Origin: a virus
Length of the DNA: 64,000 nt
Reading direction: 5' to 3' (one strand)
IMG/VR virus record: IMGVR_UViG_3300028898_000325
Location: 2,631-66,630 of that record
Shown piece after piece: positions 3 through 42,970 of this stretch. The notes beneath the pieces are model-generated. The model saw nothing but the letters and a program-made list of their open reading frames with translations, searched no databases and was not told where the DNA came from. The position numbers and the translations under genes are program-made. Position 1 is the first letter of the stretch, and the number at the start of each line of letters is the position of its first letter.

Positions 3-548
3 AAAGAGGCGATACAGGCCAGGATAAACGAAATAAACGAAAAGATCACCCCGGATGTATCCGATTGGATGCGGGAAGAATTGCTTTCCCGGAAATCAAA
101 GCTTTCAGGCGGCTTTGCCCTGCTTTACATTGGTGGGAAGACTGCCGGTGAGATAAAGGAATTAAAAGACCGCTGCGAAGATGCTGTTTTGGCTGTTCGC
201 TCTGCCATTGAGGCAGGATATTTGCCCGGATGTGGTAAAGCGTATCTTATGGCCTCAAAAAAATTGCCCGGAAAATCTATTTTGATCGAAGCGCTGCACT
301 CAATTACTCGGCAGGTTTGCTTTAACGGAGACATCAACGAAATACAAACCGGGGAAATCATTTTAAAAATGCTTTCATCTGGCGTTACTTTTGGCTACAA
401 CGCCCGAACCGATACAATGGAGGATTTATTTAAAGCCGGTGTTATTGATAGCGCAAAAGTTGTCATTTCAGCCCTTCAGAATGCCGTTTCCGCTGCCCTG
501 GCCTTTGTAAACACGGAATTTATCATTGCTCAGGAAAAGAAAGATTAA
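3..548 (+). CDS. groEL: Chaperonin GroEL-like protein, C-terminal part (5' truncated by window edge)
   Basis: The frame is open from nt 3: ARINEI..SDWMREELLSRKSKLSGGFALLYIGG...KDRCEDAVLAVRSAIEAGYLPGCG...GYNARTD..DLFKAGVIDSAKVVISALQNAVSAA. This follows the GroEL apical/equatorial motifs (KERxxDAxxAxxAAxxxGxxPGGG; GIIDPxKVxxxALxNAxS). Confidence 0.92.
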   Translation, partial: KEAIQARINEINEKITPDVSDWMREELLSRKSKLSGGFALLYIGGKTAGEIKELKDRCEDAVLAVRSAIEAGYLPGCGKAYLMASKKLPGKSILIEALHSITRQVCFNGDINEIQTGEIILKMLSSGVTFGYNARTDTMEDLFKAGVIDSAKVVISALQNAVSAALAFVNTEFIIAQEKKD

Positions 549-796
549 TCACCTTCCAGTATCCATGTATAGGATTTTTTGTACCGATCCTTCCATTTGT
601 GCAGGAAGTCAATGGTAACGCCGTATGTGGCAAGTTCCAGCGCTTTCAGGTGGGAAAGTTTAACATCCATGGATTCAGCAAATTCTTTTTGAGTAAGCCC
701 GGCTTGATGCCGGGTTTCTCTTAGTCTTTTGGCAATGCCTGGATCACCAACCTTTGGCTTTACAGGCTTTTTCTTTTTTGTTTTGCTGACGGACAT
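545..796 (-). CDS. XRE-family helix-turn-helix regulator
   Basis: IAKRLRETRHQAGLTQKEFAESMDVKLSHLKALE matches the HTH_3 pattern. Confidence 0.85.
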   Translation of the reverse strand: MSVSKTKKKKPVKPKVGDPGIAKRLRETRHQAGLTQKEFAESMDVKLSHLKALELATYGVTIDFLHKWKDRYKKSYTWILEGD

Positions 797-839: not shown

Positions 840-889
840 TTGAGTTGCGGCAATTGGGCGGAACTGCGGCAATACAAGAGTTAGCAGCA
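840..889 (+). other. Putative attI-like entry site of cassette array 1
   Basis: It ends in GA|GTTAGCAGCA (GTT at 880) and has no left hairpin arm. TTGAGTTGCGGCAATTGGG (840-858) is 17/19 identical to the reverse complement of 12531-12549. TGCGGCAAT occurs twice in direct orientation. Confidence 0.5.
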
Positions 890-1150
890 ATGCCTGACCA
901 ACACACAATCCTGCTTTGCTATATGCCGCCACATGGTTCGCTGCCCAGCATAGTCCTCCCACAATACATAGTCTTTAATGCCACCAGCATTATCAACGTC
1001 AAATTCTTCACCGATTAAGTTTCTATACCAACCCTGCTCGTATGAGCATTGGGTAATTCTGACCCGACAAGGAGCAGGCGGCAGGGCACTGCTGCTAACA
1101 TCGGTTTGCTGCAAGTCAGGCTGATTGTTTTCTAATGAACTGTTTTCCAT
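881..1150 (-). CDS. Hypothetical phage protein in cassette A (antisense to attC)
   Basis: 89-aa ORF. The stop TAA lies inside the core at 880-889 and the ATG lies inside the attC at 1090-1231. Confidence 0.65.
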   Translation of the reverse strand: MENSSLENNQPDLQQTDVSSSALPPAPCRVRITQCSYEQGWYRNLIGEEFDVDNAGGIKDYVLWEDYAGQRTMWRHIAKQDCVLVRHCC

Positions 1151-1231
1151 TTTGTAAACTTTAGTTTGTTATTAAATACTGTTGTGCTGCCAAGTCCTGC
1201 CCTGACAGCAAGCCGTCAACCGTTGTAGGCA
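1090..1231 (+). repeat. attC-like recombination site (array 1, #1)
   Basis: TGCTGCTAAC - GGTTTGCTGCAAGTCAGG ... CCTGACAGCAAGCC - GTTGTAGGCA. The arms are imperfect inverted repeats between AAC and GTT cores, with the longer spacer on the GTT side. Confidence 0.8.
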
Positions 1232-1278
1232 ATTTGGCAACCGTCTCCATAATCTAAACTTCACCTAAAAACTTTCGT

Positions 1279-2097
1279 ATGACACCAAAAACTCTTTTAA
1301 TTATGTTAATGGCACTTGTTTGCCAAAACGCATTTGCTCAAAATAAAAAATCAAATAAAGAAGCTCCTAACAAATTCGAGAACATTGATACCACTTCTTC
1401 ATCAAATCAAAAAGGAACTGAGGACATCAGTGAATATGGAGGAACACCAATAGTGACAAGAACAAGTAAATTTATTGAAATTTCTGAGGAAAAATCAGGT
1501 GAGGAAATTGCAAGTTTATATGATGAATGTGTGGTGATTATCAGTGGGTCATCCTCCACATTTTCCAGTCAAGGTAGCGGAGTAATAATATCTTCTGATG
1601 GTTATTTAATAACAAATTATCACGTGATAGCTGGAATGAACAATATAACCGCTTCCAATGCTATTATTAAAAATACTCCAGTCACAATTATATTTAAAGA
1701 CCAAACTAATGACATAGCACTTTGCAAACTTCCTAAATCAAATTATAAGACTGCTCAATTTTGGTTTGGTGATGCGCTTTTTAAGGGGTCGACAATATAT
1801 GCTATTGGAAGTCCATTAGGAACTCCAAATATGATTACAAAAGGAATTGTGTCCGGTAAGTATATCGAAGATGGTAAAGCATATATAGTTCATGACGCAG
1901 CCATGGGCAGCGGATCTAGCGGAGGAGCATTAATAAATGCAAAAGGTCTTCTTGTAGGCATCAATACAAAAGTGAAATTGCAACAAAAAGAAACTGTTGT
2001 TCAAAACTTCAATTATGCAATACCAATTCACGTAATTGAAAATATTCTTAAAGAAGCAGGTTATGAAAATGTTCTTAAAAATACTTCATCCAAATAA
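1279..2097 (+). CDS. Secreted trypsin-like serine protease (S1/HtrA-like catalytic domain, no PDZ), cassette B
   Basis: Signal peptide ending AFA|Q; GSGVIISSDGYLITNYHVI (His), NDIAL (Asp), GSSGGALIN (Ser). Confidence 0.9.
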   Translation: MTPKTLLIMLMALVCQNAFAQNKKSNKEAPNKFENIDTTSSSNQKGTEDISEYGGTPIVTRTSKFIEISEEKSGEEIASLYDECVVIISGSSSTFSSQGSGVIISSDGYLITNYHVIAGMNNITASNAIIKNTPVTIIFKDQTNDIALCKLPKSNYKTAQFWFGDALFKGSTIYAIGSPLGTPNMITKGIVSGKYIEDGKAYIVHDAAMGSGSSGGALINAKGLLVGINTKVKLQQKETVVQNFNYAIPIHVIENILKEAGYENVLKNTSSK

Positions 2098-2100
2098 AAC

Positions 2101-2303
2101 TGCCTACAACAAATGTATTACAGCAAGCGGGGCAGAAGTACAAATCATCAGCTGGAAACCGCTACTGTACTGCATTCACGCATGCAGTACAGCTATGGAA
2201 CATCGGTTGTAAACATCAAATTTTAAATCAATAATCGGCTGCAGTCCCACGCATGCGGAACATGAAAAATCCCGCCTGCTTTAATACTCGGTCGTTGGGC
2301 GCA
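2101..2303 (+). repeat. attC-like recombination site (array 1, #2; long)
   Basis: TGCCTACAAC - GTATTACAGCAAGCGGG ... CCCGCCTGCTTTAATAC - GTTGGGCGCA. It begins 3 nt after the protease stop codon. Confidence 0.8.
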
Positions 2304-2306
2304 ATA

Positions 2307-2747
2307 CTACGCTACCATTAATTCAGGATTTTCATATTTATTACCAATAACTTCTGTTTGATTCCACCATTCTATTGAGTATAATGAGCATTGGTCTTCT
2401 GACACTGTTGCATGGAAAGCGTAATCCTTCCAAACGACAACATTCCACCCTCCTTGCCAATTTTTTACAATATCTCCTTCCCATATTTCTTTACCATTTT
2501 TATCCTTCAACCCTGTATTTTGAAGGAAAATAGATTCATTCGGGAAAATGTCATATTTGTTTTCGTCTGGAACATACTGTGTTAACTCATTGTGTAACTC
2601 AAATGATTTCCCCATCTTTTTTAAAGACGGAATCCACGCCTTAAAATTTAATTTTCTTTTCATAATAAACGTACATGCGCCCAACATTTGCTTTGTGGCA
2701 ATAGTGGCAGAAGTGCCAGCTTCAACTTTTGATTTTCTATTTGACAT
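2307..2747 (-). CDS. YopX-like phage protein, cassette C (alternative start 2663)
   Basis: KLNFKAW...LQNTGLKDKNGKEIWEGDIVK...EVIGNKYENPEL is the YopX family signature. Confidence 0.88.
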   Translation of the reverse strand: MSNRKSKVEAGTSATIATKQMLGACTFIMKRKLNFKAWIPSLKKMGKSFELHNELTQYVPDENKYDIFPNESIFLQNTGLKDKNGKEIWEGDIVKNWQGGWNVVVWKDYAFHATVSEDQCSLYSIEWWNQTEVIGNKYENPELMVA

Positions 2748-2814
2748 AAGAATATATTTTGAACATTTGATTAATAAATTCCACTACTGCACAAAGCAGT
2801 TCAACGTTGGGCGT
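2676..2814 (+). repeat. attC-like recombination site (array 1, #3)
   Basis: TGCGCCCAAC - TGCTTTGTGGCAATAGTGG ... CCACTACTGCACAAAGCA - GTTGGGCGT. The left arm carries one extra base. Confidence 0.85.
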
Positions 2815-2856
2815 AAGCACTACCAGCATTTATTGCCAGTAGTGCTGCCCGACAAA

Positions 2857-3111
2857 TTAAGAACGTGGAGGCCAGTGCCAGGTTCTTGGCTCTTTAGTTT
2901 CGCTGTAAGGAACAGAAGTTGCCCATACATCTTTTTCACCATCAGCCAATACTTTTAAATTCACCTCATCGTTTTCGTATGAAGTGTTTTCCCACGTTCT
3001 TACAATAACAGCAGGTGACGTTTCGCCATTATTGTTTTCTTTTCTTGCATCTTCTGGCCACACGTAGATTACTACTCTACCAGAAGACGGCTTTACTTCG
3101 GACTTTGCCAT
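2857..3111 (-). CDS. Conserved-looking phage hypothetical protein, cassette D
   Basis: PSSGRVVIYV...PAVIVRTW...VNLKVLADG..W.TSV...WHWPPR resembles a small phage protein family recalled from memory; function unknown. Confidence 0.75.
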   Translation of the reverse strand: MAKSEVKPSSGRVVIYVWPEDARKENNNGETSPAVIVRTWENTSYENDEVNLKVLADGEKDVWATSVPYSETKEPRTWHWPPRS

Positions 3112-3172
3112 TTTATTTACGGTTTGACCAGAGCCGTTATGGTTTAATTTTCTATTAAATTACCCGTGCCTA

Positions 3173-3309
3173 ACGCCCAACAAACGGTTTGGCGGCAGTC
3201 GGGGGACAAGTGCAAATCCTCATCTTCGCTTATCTATCGGCTTCGGAAATATGGTCAGCAGCAGTTTTTCAAATACCGCCCGACCGCCAAGCCGAAACCG
3301 TTAGCGGCC
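3173..3309 (+). repeat. attC-like recombination site (array 1, #4)
   Basis: ACGCCCAAC (GCCCAAC fits RYYYAAC) - GGTTTGGCGGCAGTCGGG ... CCCGACCGCCAAGCC - GTTAGCGGCC. Confidence 0.85.
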
Positions 3310-3311
3310 AT

Positions 3312-3641
3312 TTAATATTTAAAGCGATCATACGCCTGTATATTTTTTTTCATTTTGGTTTCTACAAAAAACTTTGCCATGCTTTCCATCATTGCTTTCA
3401 GTTCTTCATTTATGTTCCCGTGGAAAATTACTTTGTTATCAAGCGGGTACCAGGTTGTTACTGCAATGTTGTATCCGGGCACTCTTTCTTCTGCCAGTGG
3501 CTTTATTTTTTCCATCTGCTGGTTAAGCAGCTGGGTATCTTTGTACATCCATACCCTGCATATCCATAAAGGAAAAACAGTGTGCAGGATGTAGGTCCCG
3601 TCTTCTATGTTTACGAAAACAAATTTTTCTACTTTAGGCAT
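3312..3641 (-). CDS. Hypothetical protein
   Basis: Likely start MPKVEKFVF (ORF is open to 3683); the stop is adjacent to the attC #4 core. Confidence 0.65.
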   Translation of the reverse strand: MPKVEKFVFVNIEDGTYILHTVFPLWICRVWMYKDTQLLNQQMEKIKPLAEERVPGYNIAVTTWYPLDNKVIFHGNINEELKAMMESMAKFFVETKMKKNIQAYDRFKY

Positions 3642-3867
3642 CTTGCTTTTTGATTTTAAACTGTATTTCCACACCGTAACCATTAACTATCTCTTCCAGT
3701 ATATCCAGGCTAATATTTCGGATTCCCCTTTCTATGTACGAAAGGTTTGAAGCAGCCTGACCGGTTTTTGCTGCAGCATCTTCTAAAGTTAAATTTTGCT
3801 TTTTCCGGAATGCTTTTAGTGCGGATCCAACTTGTGATTTTAAATCTTCTGTGGTTTTCTCTTTCAT
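3634..3867 (-). CDS. XRE-family helix-turn-helix regulator
   Basis: LKAFRKKQNLTLEDAAAKTGQAASNLSYIERGIRNISLDILEEI matches HTH_3. Confidence 0.88.
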   Translation of the reverse strand: MKEKTTEDLKSQVGSALKAFRKKQNLTLEDAAAKTGQAASNLSYIERGIRNISLDILEEIVNGYGVEIQFKIKKQDA

Positions 3868-3966
3868 TTTTGGGGAGTGTTGATGCACCGGAGCAGCCAT
3901 ATAGGATAACGCCCCGGTGGGTTGTGTTTAGTTAAGGGCAAAATTGCGGGTTTATACTTGCTTTTT

Positions 3967-4197
3967 TCACCCTACAAACATTTTTTTAAGTGCATATATC
4001 TGGGTCCATAATGTAGGGTGTTTTTGCCCATCAAAAAGGCTGTGACCTTCCAACGGGGTTTTCTGCAAATGAAATTCAACAGAGTTTAACGCCATGCTGG
4101 CGGTAAACAATAACTCCCCTATCTTTTCCCGTTTATCTTTGGGAAGTAGCTTTATATTTTGCAATAGTGCTGTGTCGGTGGTTTGTTGTGCTTTCAT
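3967..4197 (-). CDS. Hypothetical protein
   Basis: 76-aa ORF in a run of minus-strand genes. Confidence 0.55.
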   Translation of the reverse strand: MKAQQTTDTALLQNIKLLPKDKREKIGELLFTASMALNSVEFHLQKTPLEGHSLFDGQKHPTLWTQIYALKKMFVG

Positions 4198-7981: not shown

Positions 7982-8126
7982 ATGCAAATAAACATGAGAG
8001 AGAACACCGGCGCCGGCACCAGCCGCAACACCACCAAACAGTGAAAAAAGTAAAAATGAAGCCTCCGAGAATTGAATAGAGAAAAACAAATTGCGCTATT
8101 GTACAGGATAAGCCAGGCTTACAGCC

Positions 8127-8510
8127 TTATTCAGCAGCATTCGGCAGGCCCGGCAGACCACGGGCCGCCAGCTTGTGCAATATCTTTTCGTAACGAGAGA
8201 GTAACAGACGACCGGACGTGGTGATGACCAGCGGTGAACGCTGACTACCACGAGCCAAATAGCCACGTTTGAGCAAACCCTGAACAAGATCATTTACAAA
8301 ACCAAAGGAACGAGTATTCCTACAAGCCTTTAATATCTTCCCTACTTTATCGTAAGTCACAGCAACCCCATGAGCATTGCAATAAACAACATACACCAAC
8401 GCAATTAAATCAACCCTCCTAACCTCCCAACCTTCCATAGATGATAACACAGAAAGGGCAGAGCCTTCATTCAACGTTGAACAAACCAACGGAAAATCAG
8501 CTAACACCAT
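8127..8510 (-). CDS. Hypothetical protein, possible winged-helix DNA-binding protein
   Basis: YDKVGKIL...VNDLVQGLLKRGYLARG...LVITTSGRLLL resembles MarR-like wHTH; the start codon is uncertain (ORF open to 8639). Confidence 0.4.
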   Translation of the reverse strand: MVLADFPLVCSTLNEGSALSVLSSMEGWEVRRVDLIALVYVVYCNAHGVAVTYDKVGKILKACRNTRSFGFVNDLVQGLLKRGYLARGSQRSPLVITTSGRLLLSRYEKILHKLAARGLPGLPNAAE

Positions 8511-9032
8511 TACAGACGAACGCAATTGTAATTTATCGCCCAAAATTAAACAGAGTTTGTACTCAATTGAGTGATTTATGAAGGGGTTAATTGCACATTT
8601 GCAGACACATTGGCGCATTAGATCCTGACATAACGGCACAATGTGTTATAACATTATGAAAATCAGTATGAATGCAAGGCGCAAAAGCAACGCCCACAAT
8701 ATTAATTATGTTAAATAGGCCATTTTTCACCCCAAATATACACCTTATCTTTCCATTTGAACGCTGCGAGAATTGAATATTTACCCTCAACCCCTCCCCT
8801 ACCCTACCGGATGTGCTGCAAATTGGTTTATTTTCCGTGATAACCATGCGAATTGCTTTGAAATTTCCAGATTCCCCTTTTCCCGCCGACCATAAAAAAG
8901 ACCCCACCCGGTCGCAAAATTCCCGTTTCCCCAGGCAAAACGACCCCGGCTTTATAAGGTATTATCCCTCCATTCCATCCACACGTCCTATTTTAACAGG
9001 CTGTGAATGGATGTGGCGGTTAATTTTTGGGT

Positions 9033-9320
9033 TTAGTATTTGAGTGTTAATACTTTTACCACATTCATTTGGGCGTTGAGGATTTCGCCTATGGTGTGGT
9101 GGTAAAGTATTGTGGCATGCTGTGATAGTGCTTTTTGTTGGGTTACTTCTCTTTCCTGTATTTCATCATGCAGGAGGTCTGCAAGTTCTGCGCAAAGTTT
9201 TTTTGCCTTGGTTACTTTGTCATCGTTTGATGGGTTGAAGGTTAATCCTACGAGTTTTTCCCCGAAAGTCATTGGTCTTTGTGGGGCTACATCTACTGGG
9301 CTTGATTGTGTTGTACTCAT
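9033..9320 (-). CDS. Small helical phage protein, possibly Acb2/Tad1-hairpin-like
   Basis: TFGEKLVGLTFNPSND...AKKLCAELADL...IGEILNAQMNVVKVLT; family resemblance recalled from memory, not searched. Confidence 0.45.
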   Translation of the reverse strand: MSTTQSSPVDVAPQRPMTFGEKLVGLTFNPSNDDKVTKAKKLCAELADLLHDEIQEREVTQQKALSQHATILYHHTIGEILNAQMNVVKVLTLKY

Positions 9321-9548
9321 AATATTGTCGGTTTTACCGGAGCCGATACGGTTTATTTTGATTGATCGCTTGTTTTGTTTACTTCTTATCGCTTTCTTTG
9401 TTATCGTTGGGATTTGGGGAGGTGTGTGGCTTGTTTGAGTTCCTCTTCTGTGTTCCCGTAGAGCGATTTAAAGACTACGGTTTTCTGTTGTTTTTCCATT
9501 GTGTGTTTGTTTATGGTTGCGAAGGATCACCCTTTGAGTATTCTTTGA

Positions 9549-9761
9549 TTATTTGGTTGGGCATGAGGGTAGTTTTATTTTTTTAAGCAGCATTGACATT
9601 AGGTAATCATATATACTGAAAACTTGTTTAAACTTGTCTACGCCTGAAAATATCCAGTATACCCCAGCCAGTACAAGCAGTACAGAATAGAGAGAGGTTA
9701 TTAGAAACGCCGCTGGCATCCAGGGTATTATTTTAATAAAAAAAACGAGTCTGTTTGTCAT
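9549..9761 (-). CDS. Small membrane protein
   Basis: Long hydrophobic stretch; ATGA overlap with the upstream gene. Confidence 0.5.
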   Translation of the reverse strand: MTNRLVFFIKIIPWMPAAFLITSLYSVLLVLAGVYWIFSGVDKFKQVFSIYDYLMSMLLKKIKLPSCPTK

Positions 9762-10033
9762 AGTTTTGTTTCGTTGTTTGTGGAGGGGTTTTGTTTTGAC
9801 TGAAGGAACATTTGATATGCCCCATCGGATGTGACATACTTCATATCGAGACCTATCCATGTACCATTGGAAGCGGACTGAAAATCTAACTTGTGATTGC
9901 TCATGAAGTTTGCAAACTCAATCGCCTCCCGCCGGCACAGTTCCTCTATCTGCTTTGTAAAGTCCGCTTCGTCTTCTCTTGTGAGGTATTGGTATTTGTC
10001 AATCTTTTGAACTAATTCGTAGGCTTTACTCAT
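9758..10033 (-). CDS. Hypothetical protein
   Basis: 91 aa; shares EAIEF and Y..FLQ.KQ motifs with its neighbour. Confidence 0.65.
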   Translation of the reverse strand: MSKAYELVQKIDKYQYLTREDEADFTKQIEELCRREAIEFANFMSNHKLDFQSASNGTWIGLDMKYVTSDGAYQMFLQSKQNPSTNNETKL

Positions 10034-10296
10034 TGCTGCTGTTTTTGCTGCAAGAAAATTTGATAATACTGTTCCATTGATTCATAGGTGCCGTGACTAT
10101 CTACAAATACACCAAGCGAAACCTCCAGCATTCTACCTGTAGCAAATTCAAGGAACTCAATCGCCTCCTGCTTGGCGTACTCGTCCATAGCCTTTTCTAT
10201 TTCTTCGATTTGGCTATTAGGGTCGCCACCCCAACTGTAGCATTCCGTACTATCCCATCCGCTGTCTTCAAGTATTTCTTCTTTTGTTTTTGTCAT
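10030..10296 (-). CDS. Hypothetical protein
   Basis: 88 aa; MTKTKEEIL...KAMDEYAKQEAIEF. Confidence 0.65.
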   Translation of the reverse strand: MTKTKEEILEDSGWDSTECYSWGGDPNSQIEEIEKAMDEYAKQEAIEFLEFATGRMLEVSLGVFVDSHGTYESMEQYYQIFLQQKQQQ

Positions 10297-10406
10297 GCCT
10301 CAGAGTTTTTTCTTAACAAAAACCAAAGATAGGAAAAAATATTTGGTTATGTGGCATAACTTTATGTTATTTGTGGTTATATTGTATGACTTTAAAAAAC
10401 GAAAGA

Positions 10407-10696: not shown

Positions 10697-10827
10697 GGTA
10701 ACGGCTCCGGGTGTTTGCGAAGGGATGGAATAGTAGCACTTCCGCCCAACAACAACAAATGCCCGGCTTTGCAAATGGTTGAGAACTTATTCGTCAGCCA
10801 GCCTTTTGCAAATACCAATGTTCTATG
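10697..10827 (-). repeat. attC-like recombination site (array 2, distal)
   Basis: On the + strand: GGTAAC - GGTGTTTGCGAAGGGATGG ... CCAGCCTTTTGCAAATACC - GTTCTATG; the arms are 15/19 complementary. Spacer asymmetry indicates minus orientation. Confidence 0.75.
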
Positions 10828-10877
10828 TCTGTATTTTGCGAAGCTGCGGAGCTTTACTAACAATTTAAAAAGAGGTT

Positions 10878-11156
10878 ATGACAACAGAAAATGCTTTAGA
10901 CTTAGTAAAAATGTATGCTCAACCTGCTAAATCTTCTTTTGGCGGCGAACTGGATTATAATATAATTCCTTCAAAGCAATTCTATCATTTAGCAAATGAA
11001 ATTGCTGAAAAGGTAAACATGTGGCAAGATCAGGCCATTACGCTGCATAAGATTATTTATAAAATGATGAATGAAGAAATACCTACTTATGATATGAAGG
11101 AAGGGGAGGTAATTAAAAGTATTGTTGCTGAAATTGTAAATAACACAAAAAAATAA
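10878..11156 (+). CDS. Hypothetical protein (cassette E, gene 1)
   Basis: 92-aa ORF between paired cores at 10820 and 11571. Confidence 0.6.
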   Translation: MTTENALDLVKMYAQPAKSSFGGELDYNIIPSKQFYHLANEIAEKVNMWQDQAITLHKIIYKMMNEEIPTYDMKEGEVIKSIVAEIVNNTKK

Positions 11157-11161
11157 ATTTT

Positions 11162-11575
11162 ATGGTAGATAAGAAAAAACTTGCCGAAATATTTAACCTT
11201 CCAGTGAGTGAAGTTGAAACAATTTTTGAAGCTGCATTGGTTTATCAATGTGATGCACAAAATGAAGGGTATAGAGATTGGTGTAAAATGTATGATGGCA
11301 TTCATAGGGAAATGCACGGGGAAACAGCAATAAGAAACTGGCTTGCATTTAGAAGATGGCAAAAATCAAGGGCACAGCCTTCTATTAAAGAGTTTATGAA
11401 TCTCGCAAATGAGTTGAGTAATACATCTACGGATAAACAATTTAGATATGTTCTTACTCATTCACAACTTATAAAGCTGTATGAATTTGCGCAAGCTGGT
11501 GCTATTAATGCTGAAATTCAAACGTCCAGCCCATTAAAGAACGAAAAGTGTGGCAAGGGGCAAAATATAGCATAG
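11162..11575 (+). CDS. Hypothetical protein (cassette E, gene 2)
   Basis: 137 aa; the stop TAG lies inside the core CATAGAAC. Confidence 0.65.
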   Translation: MVDKKKLAEIFNLPVSEVETIFEAALVYQCDAQNEGYRDWCKMYDGIHREMHGETAIRNWLAFRRWQKSRAQPSIKEFMNLANELSNTSTDKQFRYVLTHSQLIKLYEFAQAGAINAEIQTSSPLKNEKCGKGQNIA

Positions 11576-11683
11576 AACGTGCCGGGTGCTTACGAAGGCG
11601 GGATATTGACTTGAGGCAGTTTGGCTTTGCGATTGTTCCGGCTTTGTTCCTTCGCCCCGCTTTTGTAAGCACCATGTTATGTA
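11571..11683 (-). repeat. attC-like recombination site (array 2, middle)
   Basis: CATAGAAC - GGTGCTTACGAAGGCGGG ... CCCGCTTTTGTAAGCACC - GTTATGTA; the arms are 16/18 complementary. Confidence 0.85.
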
Positions 11684-11785
11684 TCAGTAGGGCAATGACT
11701 GTTCCTGCTGCTGAATAGAATTACTGAAGAAAAAATGCGGGGACGGCTGAAGTCACAGCCACTCCGAAACACTAAAAACAAAAGC

Positions 11786-12169
11786 ATGAAAATTTATACT
11801 GCAAGCAAAACGAAACACGCTCACAAATGGATTGAGCTAAGAAATAACGGCGTGAATGTTATTTCAACTTGGATTGATGAAGCAGGGCAAGGGCAAACAA
11901 AAGACATGGCTGATTTGTGCCGCCGTTGCATTCAGGAAAGTATTGACTGTGATGCAATGATTGTGTATGCAGAAGAAGGCGACTATTTGAAGGGTGCATT
12001 TATTGAAATGGGCATTGCTCTTAGCGTTCCCTCTAAGCCGATTGTGTTGGTTGGCGAAGTGCTGCCTTTCGGTTCAGCATTCACGTATGCGCCACAAGTT
12101 TTCAGGGCTAAAACAATAGAGGCGGCTTTGGAACTGTTAGAAACTTCCAAAACGCCGGTCACGGCGTAG
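11786..12169 (+). CDS. Nucleoside 2-deoxyribosyltransferase-like (NDT-fold) protein, cassette F
   Basis: MKIYTAS...ISTWID...CIQESIDCDAMIVY...KGAFIEMGIAL..KPIVLVG follows the NDT pattern (xIYLAG ... D ... GxxxExGxA). Confidence 0.7.
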   Translation: MKIYTASKTKHAHKWIELRNNGVNVISTWIDEAGQGQTKDMADLCRRCIQESIDCDAMIVYAEEGDYLKGAFIEMGIALSVPSKPIVLVGEVLPFGSAFTYAPQVFRAKTIEAALELLETSKTPVTA

Positions 12170-12226
12170 GGAAGCGTGGGGCATTTTTTCTAAACTGAAG
12201 TTCGGTTATGTTCAAAAGCCCTATTG

Positions 12227-12365
12227 TACATAACGTCGAGAGGCTTTGTGCCTGTTGCCGAATTTGAAATTATTCACTCTAAAATTTATACAAATGTCCA
12301 AAAGTAAAAAGAAAGTTGAGCCGACTTCCCAAAGCGGCAATAGCACAAAACCTGTGTTATATGCC
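12227..12365 (-). repeat. attC-like recombination site (array 2, proximal)
   Basis: TACATAAC - GGCTTTGTGCCTGTTGCCG ... CGGCAATAGCACAAAACC - GTTATATGCC; one extra base in one arm. Confidence 0.85.
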
Positions 12366-12527
12366 GTTGGCGATTTGGTGAAAATCATTGCTAATGTTGA
12401 TTATGTAGGTTCAGTTGGTCGGGTGATTGATTTAAACGAACCTGGCCCTCATCCGATAAAGGTTCAATTTGAGGACACTTGGTGTTGTTATGCAGCCGAT
12501 GAGATATGTCACGCCAATGGCATATAA
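12294..12527 (+). CDS. Hypothetical protein, possible SH3/KOW-like fold (cassette G)
   Basis: AVGDLVKII...GSVGRVID...PIKVQFED. The ATG lies inside the attC and the stop TAA lies inside the core GGCATATAAC. Confidence 0.6.
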   Translation: MSKSKKKVEPTSQSGNSTKPVLYAVGDLVKIIANVDYVGSVGRVIDLNEPGPHPIKVQFEDTWCCYAADEICHANGI

Positions 12528-12549
12528 CTCCCCAATTGTCACAACTCAA
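12519..12549 (-). other. Putative attI-like entry site of cassette array 2
   Basis: Minus strand TTGAGTTGTGACAATTGGGGA|GTTATATGCC; no hairpin arm; matches 840-858 at 17/19. Confidence 0.5.
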
Positions 12550-38570: not shown

Positions 38571-40607
38571 ATGTACGCACCAATCCCAAATGGGGAAAAA
38601 GAATTGATTTATGATTTGTACGAGTGTCACATACCACCCGTAGGTTATGGTATTGATTCAACTACCGGCAGTCTTGAAAAGACCGATGTAATAATGCGGT
38701 CGACAAAAATAAAAGAGCAAAAATGGGAAAGAACTCCGCTTCCATATGATTGGGTAAAAAAAAGAAAAATTGAGTCGGTACTTCAGCAAAATGATGAAAA
38801 TTATTTTGATCCCAAACTTGAAGAGTTTAGGCAGCAGGAATGGAAAAGACGTCTTCGTGGGGTTTGGTTTTATAATAATGGCAAGCCTACATACATAACA
38901 GGAGAACATTACATGTACCTTAATTGGTGGCACTTAGATGATGGCTACCCCGAATATAGAGAACCAGACAGAAAAAGGTATTATGTACTTCAATATTGTA
39001 TTGAAGACCCAAGGTGCGCTGGGATGATTGAAGCGGCAAATAGGCGTAGCGGCAAAAGCTATAGAGGTGGGCTATTTGTTTACGAATATACATCCAGAAC
39101 TGCGGATGCAAATAGCGGCATTCAAAGCAAAACCGATTCAGATGCTAAAAACTTATTCAAAGGAAAAGTAGTAACTCCATTTAGGAGGCTACCCGATTTT
39201 TTCAGGCCCACAATAGATACTTCTGCTGGAGCCAATCCAGAAAAGGAAATAAAATTTACACCCACAACAAAAAGAGGCAAACAGGCGCTTTCAAGTTTTG
39301 ATGACTTAGGGCTTAATTCTTATATAAACTTTCTTTCGTCCGAGCAATTTGCATATGATGGATGGAAACTACACAGGTACCTTGGAGATGAGGTTGGCAA
39401 AACCCTTAAAGTAAATGTTTATGATCGCCACCAAGTGATTAAGTATTGTTTACGTGTTGGTGGGAAATGGATTGGCAAGGCGCTTTATACTACAACCGTA
39501 GAGAAGTTAAAAAAAGAAGAGGAAAGTAAATTAAATGGACAAGAAGCCAAAGCATTCAAAATGCTGTGGGATGAAAGCAATCCATTAGAAAGAGATGCTA
39601 ATGGTCATACAAAAAGCGGGCTGTACAAATACTTTACTCCTGCATATGAAATGTATGATTTTGATGAATATGGATTCCCAAAAATAGAAGAAGGCAAAGA
39701 GTTTTATTTAAATACAAGAGCAGGACTTCTGCATAATCCTCGTGGCCTTGCAAGTGAAATATGCAAAAATCCGTTTTCCGAAAAGGAAATGTTTAAGCCA
39801 GACGGAGACAAGTCAATTTTTGATCCGATAGTTCTTGGGGATAGGCTTGACGACTTGTACATAATGAAAAACGTATTTACAAAGGGAGATTTCATTTGGG
39901 AAAATGGAGTGCAAGACTCAAAGGTAATTTTTAAGCCAAATAAAAATGGCAGGTTTGATGTTACATATCTTTTTGAAGAAGAAGGGAGATCAAACAACAG
40001 GTCAAACAAAGGTGGCATATGGTACCCTAATAATTCCTCTGAATTTGTAATTGGAGCCGACCCGTTTAGTCACGGGAAAACAGTAGATAAGCGAAGGTCA
40101 AATGGCGCTGGATTATGCTACATGAAATTTAATGCTGCCGGTAATAGTCCGTATAGAGAATCCTTTGTTGCTAAATACAATTTCAGGACAGCAACCCCAT
40201 CTGAATTTTATGAAGATATGCTAAAGATGGCCGTTTATTACGGGTGTCACATTTTATGGGAAAATAACAAGAACAACTGGGATATATATTTTAAACAAAG
40301 AGGATATGAAGGTTTTTTGATGAAGCTGGACGACTATCCAGATTACGGCATACCAGGAAACGAAAATACCCATAAACAAATCACAGAAATCACAATTGAG
40401 TATATCCACAAAAATATAAACAAAGTATTCTTTCCCGATTTAATTGAACAGTGGTTAGAATTTGATCCAGCAGACACTACAAAGTCGGATTTGGTTATGG
40501 CTGCTGGATATACATTGATAGCGGATTTAAGGAAGACTTATAAAAAAACTATTACAACTCTTAGACCAATGACCGAGTATGGTTTCAGAAAACATAAAAT
40601 AGCATAA
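38571..40607 (+). CDS. terL: Terminase large subunit
   Basis: YITGEHYMYLNW; Walker A-like NRRSGKSY; LGDEVGK; nuclease IGADPF; SDLVMAAG. Confidence 0.9.
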   Translation: MYAPIPNGEKELIYDLYECHIPPVGYGIDSTTGSLEKTDVIMRSTKIKEQKWERTPLPYDWVKKRKIESVLQQNDENYFDPKLEEFRQQEWKRRLRGVWFYNNGKPTYITGEHYMYLNWWHLDDGYPEYREPDRKRYYVLQYCIEDPRCAGMIEAANRRSGKSYRGGLFVYEYTSRTADANSGIQSKTDSDAKNLFKGKVVTPFRRLPDFFRPTIDTSAGANPEKEIKFTPTTKRGKQALSSFDDLGLNSYINFLSSEQFAYDGWKLHRYLGDEVGKTLKVNVYDRHQVIKYCLRVGGKWIGKALYTTTVEKLKKEEESKLNGQEAKAFKMLWDESNPLERDANGHTKSGLYKYFTPAYEMYDFDEYGFPKIEEGKEFYLNTRAGLLHNPRGLASEICKNPFSEKEMFKPDGDKSIFDPIVLGDRLDDLYIMKNVFTKGDFIWENGVQDSKVIFKPNKNGRFDVTYLFEEEGRSNNRSNKGGIWYPNNSSEFVIGADPFSHGKTVDKRRSNGAGLCYMKFNAAGNSPYRESFVAKYNFRTATPSEFYEDMLKMAVYYGCHILWENNKNNWDIYFKQRGYEGFLMKLDDYPDYGIPGNENTHKQITEITIEYIHKNINKVFFPDLIEQWLEFDPADTTKSDLVMAAGYTLIADLRKTYKKTITTLRPMTEYGFRKHKIA

Positions 40608-40609
40608 CC

Positions 40610-42970
40610 ATGAACGAAGCAGTATCATTTCCAAAGCATAACATCAACCCTCAATTAAAGGGAAGAGAATGGTGCCTTCAGGCAGCAAAAGCCATTGCCC
40701 ATAACTGGTCGAACTCCATGAAGGAGGGAAGTATTTTTTATGCCAAGCGTAAAAGATATGACGAGATAGATGACTACTACATGGGGTTGCAAACAACGCT
40801 TCGCTACATGGAATGGCAGACAGGAGAAAAAAATCCTGCAGCCACATGGATCAATATTGACCAAAGTATTGATCCGACAATGAAAAACCATATTCAAAAG
40901 GTTGCTGGGCGTCTCAAAAAAATTGGCTACAATATTTGCGCTACGCCGCTGGACAGCACAGCAAAAAGTAAGCTGGATTCATGGTATGACCAAATGAAAG
41001 TTAAAATACTCATGCGTGAAGCAGCAATGCAAGCCAATCCTCAATATGCACAAACAGCGCAGCTGATGAATGCCGGTGACGAACCGGAGGATGTCGAAGA
41101 ATTAAACATTGCGGTTAAGTTCAGCCCAAAAGTTATTCGTGCAAAAGATGTTGAGCAGGCCGTGTCAATGATTTTTTATGAGAATGATTTTGATGCGCTG
41201 AAAGACAAAATGGACGAAGACATTATCAAGTATGGCGTAACCGTACCGAGAGAGTATCTTGATGAAAATGGAAAGGTTTGCATTAGGGTGTACAATCCAG
41301 GAAACTTTGTTTGCTCATGGTCGGAAGATGGAGACTTCAAAGATTTGACCTACGCAGGCGTTTACGATTATGTAACGCTTACTTCATTGGCTCCGTATTT
41401 TTCTCCAGAAGAGTTGGAAAAAATTGCCAACGCAGTAAGAGGGCAACACGGCAATCCAGCATATTTAAGTAGCAATGCACAAAATGCACTTGATTCATTC
41501 AGGGTAGCAATTTTTGATTTTGAATACAAGTCTTATGACAGCGTTGCCTATGAAGAAAAAACACGCAGGAACGGAACAAAAACTTTTGGCAAGGCTCCAT
41601 ACAGCGTTCTTTCAAAAGATGAAAACACCTATACCGGAGAAGGTGCGGTGAGAAAATACTTTGGAAAAACTAAAGAGGAAATTTACAAAGGGAAGTGGGT
41701 TGTGGGTACTGATTTTATTTACGCATATGGTAAAGAAACCAACTCAAAAAGAACAATGAACCGTAAATGGGTTCACAAAACTTCTCTTAGCTTTTTGCCG
41801 CAGGCTGCATCCTTCAGTAAAATGAGAGCGGTTAGCCTTGTTGAAGATTTGATGTCGATTGCAAACGATGTTCAAATGGTGGTGAATAAAATGAGGACGC
41901 TAAGAAACACCATGATTGTAAATGCTGTTGCAATAGATTTTTCCGCACTGGAAAATGTTGCAATCGGAGACGGTGGAGAAAACATGAAGCCGAAAGAAGT
42001 GCTGGAAATGTTTTTGCAAAACGGCGTACTGGCCTACCGGAGCGAAGACTTGATTGTTGAAGGGAAGCTGGTGCAAAGAAAACCGGTTGAACCGCTTCAG
42101 ATGAACGGAGCGATTGAACTTGCAAATATGTGGATTGACCTCAACAATCTTCACAACAAAATGTATGAGGTAAGCGGGCTGAATAAAACCACCGACAGCG
42201 CAACGGTTAACCCTAAAACATTGGTAGGTATTGCTAACGCTCAAAACATGGGCACCAACAATGCGTTGTACTCACTGGAAAATGCAAGGCGTAAAGCGAT
42301 GTTGAAGATTGCAAAAAACATTGTTCCAAGATTTCAAACTGCTTTATTGAACGGAGACTACGAAAGCGAATATGCGGACGTGTTAGGAGACAATACTATT
42401 CAGTATTTCAAATTTGCAGCAGCAAATATGCCATGCGATTACTCATTGGTTTTGGAAGACAAGATTGATGACGATTTGAGAAAAATGATTGTAGAGGTAA
42501 TGGCCGAAGACATAAAGAAAGAACTTATTACAAGTGCAGATGTCCTCATGGTAATGGACAACTACAACCTGAAAGATGCCTGCATGATTTTGGAAAAAAG
42601 AGTTGCCAAAGCCAAAAAGCAAAGAGAAGATTTTGCCATGAAGCAACAGCAGATGAACGGAGAGGTACAAGTTAAATCCGCTAAAGAAGCCGAAGCAGCC
42701 AAACGAGAAACAATGAAAGAGCAAAGCAGGCTGAAATTAAAAGAAATAGCTCTCACCAAAAGCTGGGATTACAAAATCGAACAACTAAGGCTCAGAAACT
42801 CTGCAGCAGCTACCATACATAACAATGCAACATCATTAACCAAAGAGGCTATGAAAAACAGCGGTATGCCAATGGCTGCACCAGCAGAACCAATGATGCC
42901 GCAGGAGGAACCAGGCGAAGATGCTGAAATGGAAATGCCGGAAATGGAAGAGCCGGAAGAAGTGCAATAG
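40610..42970 (+). CDS. Portal protein
   Basis: 786 aa directly after TerL, with a crAss-like gene order and an acidic C-terminal tail. Confidence 0.8.
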   Translation: MNEAVSFPKHNINPQLKGREWCLQAAKAIAHNWSNSMKEGSIFYAKRKRYDEIDDYYMGLQTTLRYMEWQTGEKNPAATWINIDQSIDPTMKNHIQKVAGRLKKIGYNICATPLDSTAKSKLDSWYDQMKVKILMREAAMQANPQYAQTAQLMNAGDEPEDVEELNIAVKFSPKVIRAKDVEQAVSMIFYENDFDALKDKMDEDIIKYGVTVPREYLDENGKVCIRVYNPGNFVCSWSEDGDFKDLTYAGVYDYVTLTSLAPYFSPEELEKIANAVRGQHGNPAYLSSNAQNALDSFRVAIFDFEYKSYDSVAYEEKTRRNGTKTFGKAPYSVLSKDENTYTGEGAVRKYFGKTKEEIYKGKWVVGTDFIYAYGKETNSKRTMNRKWVHKTSLSFLPQAASFSKMRAVSLVEDLMSIANDVQMVVNKMRTLRNTMIVNAVAIDFSALENVAIGDGGENMKPKEVLEMFLQNGVLAYRSEDLIVEGKLVQRKPVEPLQMNGAIELANMWIDLNNLHNKMYEVSGLNKTTDSATVNPKTLVGIANAQNMGTNNALYSLENARRKAMLKIAKNIVPRFQTALLNGDYESEYADVLGDNTIQYFKFAAANMPCDYSLVLEDKIDDDLRKMIVEVMAEDIKKELITSADVLMVMDNYNLKDACMILEKRVAKAKKQREDFAMKQQQMNGEVQVKSAKEAEAAKRETMKEQSRLKLKEIALTKSWDYKIEQLRLRNSAAATIHNNATSLTKEAMKNSGMPMAAPAEPMMPQEEPGEDAEMEMPEMEEPEEVQ

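Follow-up and report, generated by a model that had tools for sequence, protein, structure and literature searches.

The 64,000-nucleotide stretch of viral DNA analyzed here, referred to below as the window, comprises bases 2631 to 66630 of a 71,442-bp provirus record in IMG/VR (IMGVR_UViG_3300028898_000325; labeled G000). It carries two arrays of integron-like gene cassettes, one of four cassettes at 841-3311 (array 1) and one of three cassettes at 10698-12528 (array 2), and we conclude that these are genuine cassette arrays of a Chitinophagaceae integron-like system within a real phage. In the reading that we favor, with a probability of about 80%, both are orphan Chitinophagaceae arrays in phage early regions that resemble attC site clusters without an integron integrase (CALINs), with cassettes that would have originated as circles and with an enzyme that would act in trans. 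A CALIN is defined as at least two clustered attC sites within a few kilobases and with no integron integrase near (Cury et al. 2016, via PMC8618304 and PMC9024848); in the window, four sites fall within 2.2 kb and three within 1.7 kb, and no integron integrase is close by.

The phage sites and the chromosomal site family

To relate the phage sites to bacterial ones, we used a covariance model, R1, derived from 11 Chitinophagaceae chromosomal sites only, with sites resembling site 4 (the last site of array 1) left out. Its consensus fold has 24 pairs, 18 of which show compensatory changes. In the 64-kb window, R1 matched exactly the seven phage sites, with E values from 4e-17 to 1.9e-5, and the next match had an E value of 0.41. 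The array 1 sites were matched on the plus strand and the array 2 sites on the minus strand, with no opposite-strand match among the window sites. Since a model built from bacterial sites alone finds exactly these seven, the phage sites belong to the cassette-site family of the host family. R1 matches were present in 64 of 101 sampled Chitinophagaceae genomes; there was no match in three phage genomes related through the large terminase (TerL) or in seven phage contigs carrying homologues of the cassette 4 gene.

The relationship extends to the letters of the arms, which in sites 4 and 2 are nearly identical to those of chromosomal sites. Exact copies of the 21-nt 5' arm of site 4 are present in 18 species genomes, in 17 of them within a site context of the Chitinophagaceae type (Niabella, Puia, Parafilimonas, Ginsengibacter, Pedobacter, and several metagenome-assembled genomes [MAGs], three filed under other taxa). 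The match in a Neisseriaceae MAG was rejected as a chance match.

AAC and GTT are invariant in all seven phage sites, and the consensus of the site family is ACWGC-NNNN-AAC ... GTT-NNNN-GCWAT. A strict hairpin scan with RYYYAAC/GTTRRRY found site 3 only; the textbook consensus is therefore not broad enough to capture this family. The RYYY/RRRY pattern is complete only in two R'' boxes (sites 3 and 4) and two R' boxes (sites 2 and 3), all of array 1, with a partial fit in the other boxes. A scan by duplex energy alone was noisy, giving about 20 matches at or below -20 kcal/mol in shuffled sequence.

Chitinophagaceae-type sites were also seen on short contigs binned under unrelated taxa, namely, a 1.5-kb contig of a Saccharibacteria MAG that holds a near copy of site 4 (L035), a contig of a "Citrobacter" MAG (L040), and L026; these placements are probably binning errors caused by the site repeats. 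The loops of the long-class sites (185-192 nt; L028-L042) are conserved across genera and consist of repeats of the type CAACTTNNGTT, although in an attC site it is the loop that would be expected to vary.

Offset box pairing and array polarity

The start of each cassette (G|TT plus 7-9 nt) is the reverse complement of the end of the same cassette, before AAC. All four box pairs of array 1 are exact: GTTAGCAGCA at 880-889 with TGCTGCTAAC at 1090-1099 (cassette 1), GTTGTAGGCA at 1222-1231 with TGCCTACAAC at 2101-2110 (cassette 2), GTTGGGCGCA at 2294-2303 with TGCGCCCAAC at 2676-2685 (cassette 3), and GTTGGGCGT at 2806-2814 with ACGCCCAAC at 3173-3181 (cassette 4). A repeat finder lengthened two of these pairs to 14-15 nt at 93%. 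A first-pass annotation of array 1 had listed the same four pairs, and every one of them lies where it was placed, with the letters as written. Scoring only the four variable positions beside AAC/GTT in the seven cassettes of both arrays, we found pairing between cassette ends at 28 of 28 positions, versus 12 of 28 for pairing within the same hairpin, in agreement with the annotation's claim that the complementarity is offset. Folding showed that all four intergenic stretches of array 1 form long imperfect hairpins closed by AAC...GTT. The earlier description of four hairpins separating single genes is thus right for array 1; one cassette of array 2 has two open reading frames (ORFs). The chromosomal arrays around the exact matches to the site 4 arm follow the same offset box logic, with sites of 120-130 or 185-192 nt on a single strand.

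A detector combining a hairpin with offset complementarity recovered only arrays 1 and 2 in the 71-kb genome and, in three related phage genomes used as controls, gave scattered weak pairs only. The same 12- to 14-nt end boxes recur on different cassettes (X5 record 10 and the viral contig G011). We considered transposon-like terminal repeats as an explanation and rejected it; since only four box positions vary, one box type is expected to recur among many cassettes.

The two arrays have opposite orientations and the same polarity. Each opens with a lone G|TT box that has no hairpin (G880|T881 in array 1; the complement of C12528 in array 2, with the box GGCATATAAC at 12519-12528), and each closes with a complete hairpin (3170-3311 and 10698-10824, respectively). 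The strand-specific R1 matches agree with this anatomy. Judged from these features, the polarity that would be expected from insertion at G|TT is supported.

The entry junction of array 1 contains a 22-nt motif (841-862) and two copies of TGCGGCAAT (846-854 and 865-873). The motif is identical at 17 of 22 positions to the sequence abutting the entry of array 2 (reverse complement of 12527-12548), and AG|TT ends the entry junctions of both arrays as well as those of the viral contigs G011 and L074. The entry junction is a putative insertion site. The 18 bases that follow the motif in array 1 (863-880) repeat TGCGGCAAT and hold AAC...GTT 15 nt apart; they are possibly the stump of a lost site.

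The features of array 1 are as follows.

841-880, plus strand: entry (attI-like) junction of array 1, without a hairpin; crossover point G880|T881
881-1222, plus strand: cassette 1; boxes TTAGCAGCA...TGCTGCTAAC
881-1150, minus strand: ORF of cassette 1; 89 aa, start in the loop of site 1
1088-1233, plus strand: attC-type site 1; R1 score of 83.5 bits, E 4e-17
1223-2294, plus strand: cassette 2, the sole cassette with its gene sense to its own site
1279-2097, plus strand: ORF of cassette 2; secreted trypsin/HtrA-like serine protease (Pfam Trypsin_2, E 2.7e-26)
2099-2305, plus strand: attC-type site 2; R1 score of 35.6 bits, E 3.8e-6; fold z = -3.0
2295-2806, plus strand: cassette 3; YopX-family phage gene on the minus strand (Pfam YopX, E 1.6e-20)
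2674-2817, plus strand: attC-type site 3; R1 score of 73.4 bits, E 8.3e-15; fold z = -4.4
2807-3300, plus strand: cassette 4; ORF at 2857-3111 on the minus strand, 84 aa, small phage-type protein
3170-3311, plus strand: attC-type site 4, the last of array 1; R1 score of 35.6 bits, E 3.8e-6

Those of array 2, in the order of its cassettes, are as follows.

12223-12528, minus strand: first cassette and entry junction; site at 12223-12367 (minus strand), R1 score of 67.5 bits, E 1.8e-13
12294-12527, plus strand: ORF of the first cassette, antisense to the site
11567-12233, minus strand: second cassette; site at 11567-11685 (minus strand), R1 E 3.5e-7; boxes GTTATGTA / TACATAAC
11735-12169, plus strand: ORF of the second cassette, antisense to the site
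10698-11577, minus strand: third cassette; site at 10698-10824 (minus strand), R1 E 1.9e-5; boxes GTTCTATG / CATAGAAC
10878-11156 and 11162-11575, plus strand: two ORFs of the third cassette, both antisense to the site

Site 2 is of the long class, with about 190 nt from AAC to GTT. The R' box of site 4 is GTTAGCGGCC, and the phage flank is TTAGCGGCC.

Cassette genes and their orientation

Six of the seven phage cassettes have genes antisense to their own site. The exception is the cassette 2 protease; a homologue with 38% identity to it is carried by a 1,047-nt contig (L067), also in a sense cassette. The antisense genes run with the flanking phage operons, leftward at array 1 and rightward at array 2, which makes their expression by phage read-through probable. 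In bacterial cassettes, the ORF lay on the strand of the site in 29 of 29 cases and in 4 of 4 from a further genome (33/33 together). The ratio of sense to antisense was thus 33:0 in bacteria versus 1:9 in G000 and the viral contig G011 (p = 1.8e-8). On the latter contig (L060), from a second IMG/VR phage, four cassettes with perfect offset boxes and antisense genes form an array at 1656-3990; one of them (1797-2007) apparently has no ORF. Antisense to their sites, too, are the ORFs of two further viral contigs, L072 and L074. Single sites in two more viral contigs were sense, so the antisense rule is not absolute. Three of the antisense ORFs in the window can start inside a site loop (881-1150, 2307-2747, and 12294-12527).

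No Pfam family matched the 89-aa ORF of cassette 1. The YopX gene of cassette 3 spans 2307-2663, or 2307-2747 if it starts in the site loop, and its homologues align to the C-terminal ∼115 aa only. The 84-aa frame of cassette 4 was confirmed by metagenome copies in which the substitutions fall at third codon positions of that frame. Homologues of the 84-aa protein are found in phage early regions without attC sites. They were observed near Tad2-like (anti-defence) genes or a Phage_Mu_F gene (L062, 5866-6664; L061, 569-1396), and these neighbors hint at an early role of the host-takeover type.

The phage and its genomic setting

The element carrying both arrays is a temperate phage of Chitinophagaceae bacteria. 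CheckV estimates the completeness of G000 at 71%, and phage hallmark genes in the window include those for the large terminase (38571-40607), the portal (40610-42970), virion proteins, and a large DNA methyltransferase. A 386-aa tyrosine integrase opens the provirus record and is directly followed by GroES-like and GroEL-like genes. Array 1, about 3.5 kb from the left end of the record, has the integrase, the GroES/GroEL genes, and a helix-turn-helix gene to its left and phage early genes to its right. Array 2 has phage operons on both sides and is 10 kb into the phage. The same gene order of the phage is present on a metagenome contig (L002). The small gene beside array 1 is as follows.

545-796, minus strand: small helix-turn-helix gene between the GroEL-like gene and array 1

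The phage thus has chaperonin genes of its own, encoding a GroES-like protein of 81 aa and a GroEL-like protein of ∼525 aa (Cpn60_TCP1) at G000:C1:1359-3178; positions 3-548 of the window are the C-terminal part of this stretch. The cumulative GC skew is lowest at about 8-10 kb (window positions 8000-10300), halfway between the two opposed arrays and at the point of divergence of the leftward and rightward operons. Because transcription also turns at 8-10 kb, the skew cannot place a replication origin.

Recombinases associated with the sites

G000 contains no tyrosine recombinase apart from the phage integrase of 386 aa, whose TIGR02249 score is 50.6 bits (cut-off, 265). It was rejected as the cassette enzyme, being 26% identical to the array-type recombinase and in the catalytic core only.

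The chromosomal arrays are accompanied by a different enzyme. In two genomes (G009, L036/L043; G106, L066), the first G|TT is preceded at 150-220 nt, on the same strand, by the gene for a conserved Xer-like recombinase of 390-420 aa, and a recombinase remnant occupies the corresponding position in a third (G006, L028). Sites follow the gene within about 2 kb in G110, G021, and G027. In G007 (L044) the gene stands at a contig end, as do many further copies; repeated sites would cause an assembly to break there. Between two genera, the copies show 61% identity. The recombinase is present in 40 of 101 sampled Chitinophagaceae genomes, 33 of which also have sites (Fisher p = 0.0015).

This array-linked enzyme scores 183-185 bits on the IntI model, versus the cut-off of 265. 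It aligns to model positions 2-181 and 240-315, with about 19 residues in place of the 58 positions from 182 to 239, and has an extra N-terminal domain of ∼110 aa. We take the missing segment to be the IntI-specific insert, which contacts extrahelical bases.

An IMG/VR search with an alignment of three of these Chitinophagaceae enzymes revealed smaller relatives on viral contigs, of 280 aa (L072/L073) and 267 aa (L074), with 34-38% identity. Their best-scoring model is XerA, and on the IntI model they reach 139-147 bits. Directly upstream of the L072 and L074 recombinases, R1-type sites are present on the opposite strand. In L074, about 55 nt separate the start codon of the recombinase from G|TTAGTAGCT, where the first cassette opens, and this box pairs with the R'' box of that cassette. 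Since in both contigs a recombinase stands beside sites, some phages carry complete platforms. These have a "mirror" layout (L074, 4560-6786; L072, 1-2065), with all small genes antisense to the sites. In G011, the only tyrosine recombinase is 30 kb from the array, and the small recombinase was not found.

Mobility and search for relatives

We examined mobility on the assembled contigs of four runs; such contigs drop rare forms. Cassette 4 was found at about 96% identity on a 453-nt contig from the metagenome of another study. Divergence of contigs from the window began at 2804, which precedes G2806 by 2 nt; in R'' of site 4 (3174/3182) and of site 2 (2107/2111); and at 3303, 3308, and 3317, with different continuations right after the G|TT of site 4. 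Sites 2 and/or 4 were covered at 10-20 times the phage depth, both in a run of the source study (X3) and in one of another study (X9), as expected for multicopy site families. These data place the sites, and at least one cassette, in other sequence contexts whose breaks fall at the boxes; they do not show movement within this phage lineage. Cassette mobility has indirect support only, from the copy of cassette 4, the pattern of breaks, and the depth of sites 2 and 4. The integron-cassette interpretation proposed in the first-pass annotation is supported by the R1 site family, the array polarity, and the phage setting, with mobility supported indirectly.

Relatives of the phage proved distant. 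A megablast search with 20 kb against GenBank phages gave no match, and neither the right-flank protein nor the GroEL piece had a match in IMG/VR. The best TerL match in IMG/VR was 58% identical; three TerL-related genomes (58%, 46%, and 47% identity) had no sites and no GroEL. Among 401 Chitinophagaceae genomes, TerL matches reached 43% and 34% identity only. The exact 24-mer of the left junction was absent from IMG/VR and the JGI metagenomes other than the window's own records.

Proposed mechanism and alternative explanations

We propose that each cassette was once a circle, in which the first bases (TT plus 7-9 nt) would pair with the last bases before AAC and so close the R stem of the cassette's own hairpin site. 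The cassette would then have entered through G|TT strand exchange with the hairpin-less junction or with another site, as the anatomy of the arrays suggests. The enzyme would be supplied in trans; it could be the host Xer-like recombinase of 390-420 aa at the head of chromosomal arrays or, alternatively, the relative of 267-280 aa whose gene adjoins arrays with this type of site in other phages. The antisense cassette genes would be transcribed by read-through from the phage operons, several of them starting in a site loop.

A number of observations weigh against this explanation. The flanks of AAC and GTT fit the textbook RYYYAAC/GTTRRRY loosely, and the sites share a consistent asymmetry, with an unpaired spacer of 2 nt in the 5' arm and 6 nt in the 3' arm. 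A conserved extrahelical L-box base was not seen in the sites, and the stem bulges differ between them. No array-type recombinase was found in G000, but as the record is 71% complete, the phage itself may encode one. Nor was a canonical IntI found in the five array-bearing genomes, none of which has a protein that reaches the cut-off (0/5). Rather than the Bacteroidota IntI that the first-pass annotation suggested for an excision test, the Xer-like recombinase without the IntI-specific insert is the likely enzyme. Neither a deletion joint nor a circle junction was seen in the assembled contigs of the four runs; because contigs cannot show rare excision products, this absence is not evidence against excision. 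Finally, no close phage relative was found in which breakpoints at G|TT could be compared.

The absence of an array-type recombinase from the record and of any joint from the contigs would fit arrays that are relics, picked up once by recombination and now immobile, with the hairpins kept as 5' leaders, start codons, or transcript structure. The three antisense ORFs that start in site loops point in the same direction, and illegitimate recombination has been suggested as the route by which CALINs enter phages (PMC9892861). We nevertheless regard relic arrays as improbable. Decay would erode both end complementarity and stems, yet all seven cassettes have perfectly complementary ends, the stems are intact, and the scores are strong; moreover, cassette 4 is joined to other DNA elsewhere, and both arrays retain a clean entry junction and a terminal hairpin. 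Still harder to sustain is the idea that the hairpins, instead of being recombination sites, act as terminators or RNA elements or represent miniature transposable elements bounded by terminal inverted repeats. They are indeed intergenic and strongly structured, but no T run follows the stems and Rfam gave no match at gathering scores. The complementarity spans the gene rather than the hairpin and differs from cassette to cassette, and the same site family occurs in chromosomal arrays next to a tyrosine recombinase. Just as little can be said for the view that a misplaced provirus boundary or a chimeric assembly has put arrays of the host chromosome into the phage record. The distance of only ∼3.5 kb between array 1 and the left end of the record would allow it, but array 1 lies between phage genes, array 2 lies 10 kb inside the phage, contig L002 has the same arrangement, and the cassette genes run parallel to the phage operons.

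An explanation closer to ours, which we consider somewhat unlikely, replaces the host enzyme with a small Xer-like recombinase encoded by phages, either in the unsequenced part of the record or by coinfecting phages, and assumes a separate phage cassette pool. L072 and L074 encode recombinases of this kind directly beside R1-type sites with antisense genes, the phage cassettes are themselves antisense and hold phage genes (YopX and the 84-aa family), and the record is 71% complete. Against it, the protease cassette is of the bacterial, sense type, and G011 is also without a small recombinase. The near identity of the arms of sites 4 and 2 to those of chromosomal sites tells against a separate pool, as it means that phage and bacterial pools are not sealed off from each other. 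The orphan-array reading with an enzyme in trans thus remains the one we prefer. It could form part of a wider picture, which we put forward tentatively and at somewhat less than even odds, in which phages of Chitinophagaceae and related Bacteroidota keep a "mirror" integron of their own. This would consist of antisense accessory cassettes of phage genes, expressed together with the phage operons and in some cases using a start codon in the site loop, that are shuffled among phages and between phage and host by a small phage Xer-like enzyme without the IntI-specific insert or by the larger host enzyme, and the window arrays would be orphan members of it. If so, the antisense genes would run with both transcription and replication, and the recombining strand of both arrays would be the lagging-strand template of forks starting from the divergence point at 8-10 kb.

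Significance

Integrons have been seen mainly as a means of bacterial gene capture run by IntI, and clusters of attC sites in phages are a recent and rare observation (17 in 10,705 genomes; PMC9892861). The present case is unusually clean, with two intact arrays that have entry junctions and with a site family found in about two-thirds of the sampled Chitinophagaceae genomes. Three of its features are undescribed in PMC9892861, PMC9024848, and PMC8618304: phage genes (YopX and a small early-gene family) as cassettes, a systematic antisense orientation, and associated recombinases without the insert thought to be needed to read folded attC. If active, the sites would make phages carriers as well as users of a cassette pool that they have in common with their hosts, and the system would provide a natural test of how an Xer-like enzyme handles hairpin substrates.

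Comparison with known systems

In a survey of 10,705 phage genomes, Qi et al. (2023; Front Microbiol 14:1091391, PMC9892861) found 3 integrons, 1 In0, and 17 CALINs, and IntI1 recombined five of six phage attC sites. Since phage CALINs have been published, attC arrays in phages are not new in principle, and the first-pass annotation, which knew of no description of this as a routine mechanism for phage accessory regions, needs correction on this point. In Bacteroidetes, Néron et al. (2022; PMC9024848) list only In0 elements and one complete integron (Salinibacter), and we found no published description of Chitinophagaceae arrays. What is new is the combination of orphan arrays of the Chitinophagaceae family in a phage, cassettes that are mostly antisense phage genes, and associated Xer-like enzymes without the IntI insert.

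Like the published phage CALINs (PMC9892861), the arrays described here consist of at least two attC-type sites that bound accessory genes, with no adjacent integrase; those CALINs occur in temperate and virulent phages, one of them in P12002L, a phage of the Bacteroidota host Polaribacter, and have been proposed to serve the exchange of cassettes between phages and bacteria. Unlike those CALINs, which were called with canonical attC models, our sites were called with R1 and belong to a Chitinophagaceae family that goes with an Xer-like enzyme, and they make up two opposed arrays that both possess an entry junction, most genes being antisense.

With classical and sedentary chromosomal integrons (e.g., the Vibrio superintegron), the arrays share imperfect hairpins, AAC...GTT cores, a G|TT crossover, cassette starts that complement their own R'', and a one-directional build from a hairpin-less entry site. 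They differ from these in an array-linked enzyme that falls below the IntI cut-off and has about 19 residues for 58 IntI model positions, in a bacterial recombinase gene that lies upstream of the array on the same strand, in spacers of 2 nt versus 6 nt, and in the antisense orientation of the phage genes.

The closest counterparts are found in the Chitinophagaceae chromosomes and on other viral contigs. The chromosomal arrays have the same site family (R1 matches and exact 21-nt arms) and the same box logic, and the protease cassette is sense as theirs are. They are, however, long, all sense (33/33), and placed after a recombinase, whereas the phage arrays are short, orphan, and mostly antisense, with phage-type genes. 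The "mirror" arrays of L072 and L074 likewise have R1-type sites opposite small phage genes, ORFs that start in site loops, and an AG|TT entry end. Unlike G000, which has no such gene, they carry their recombinase 55 nt to ∼700 nt from the array.

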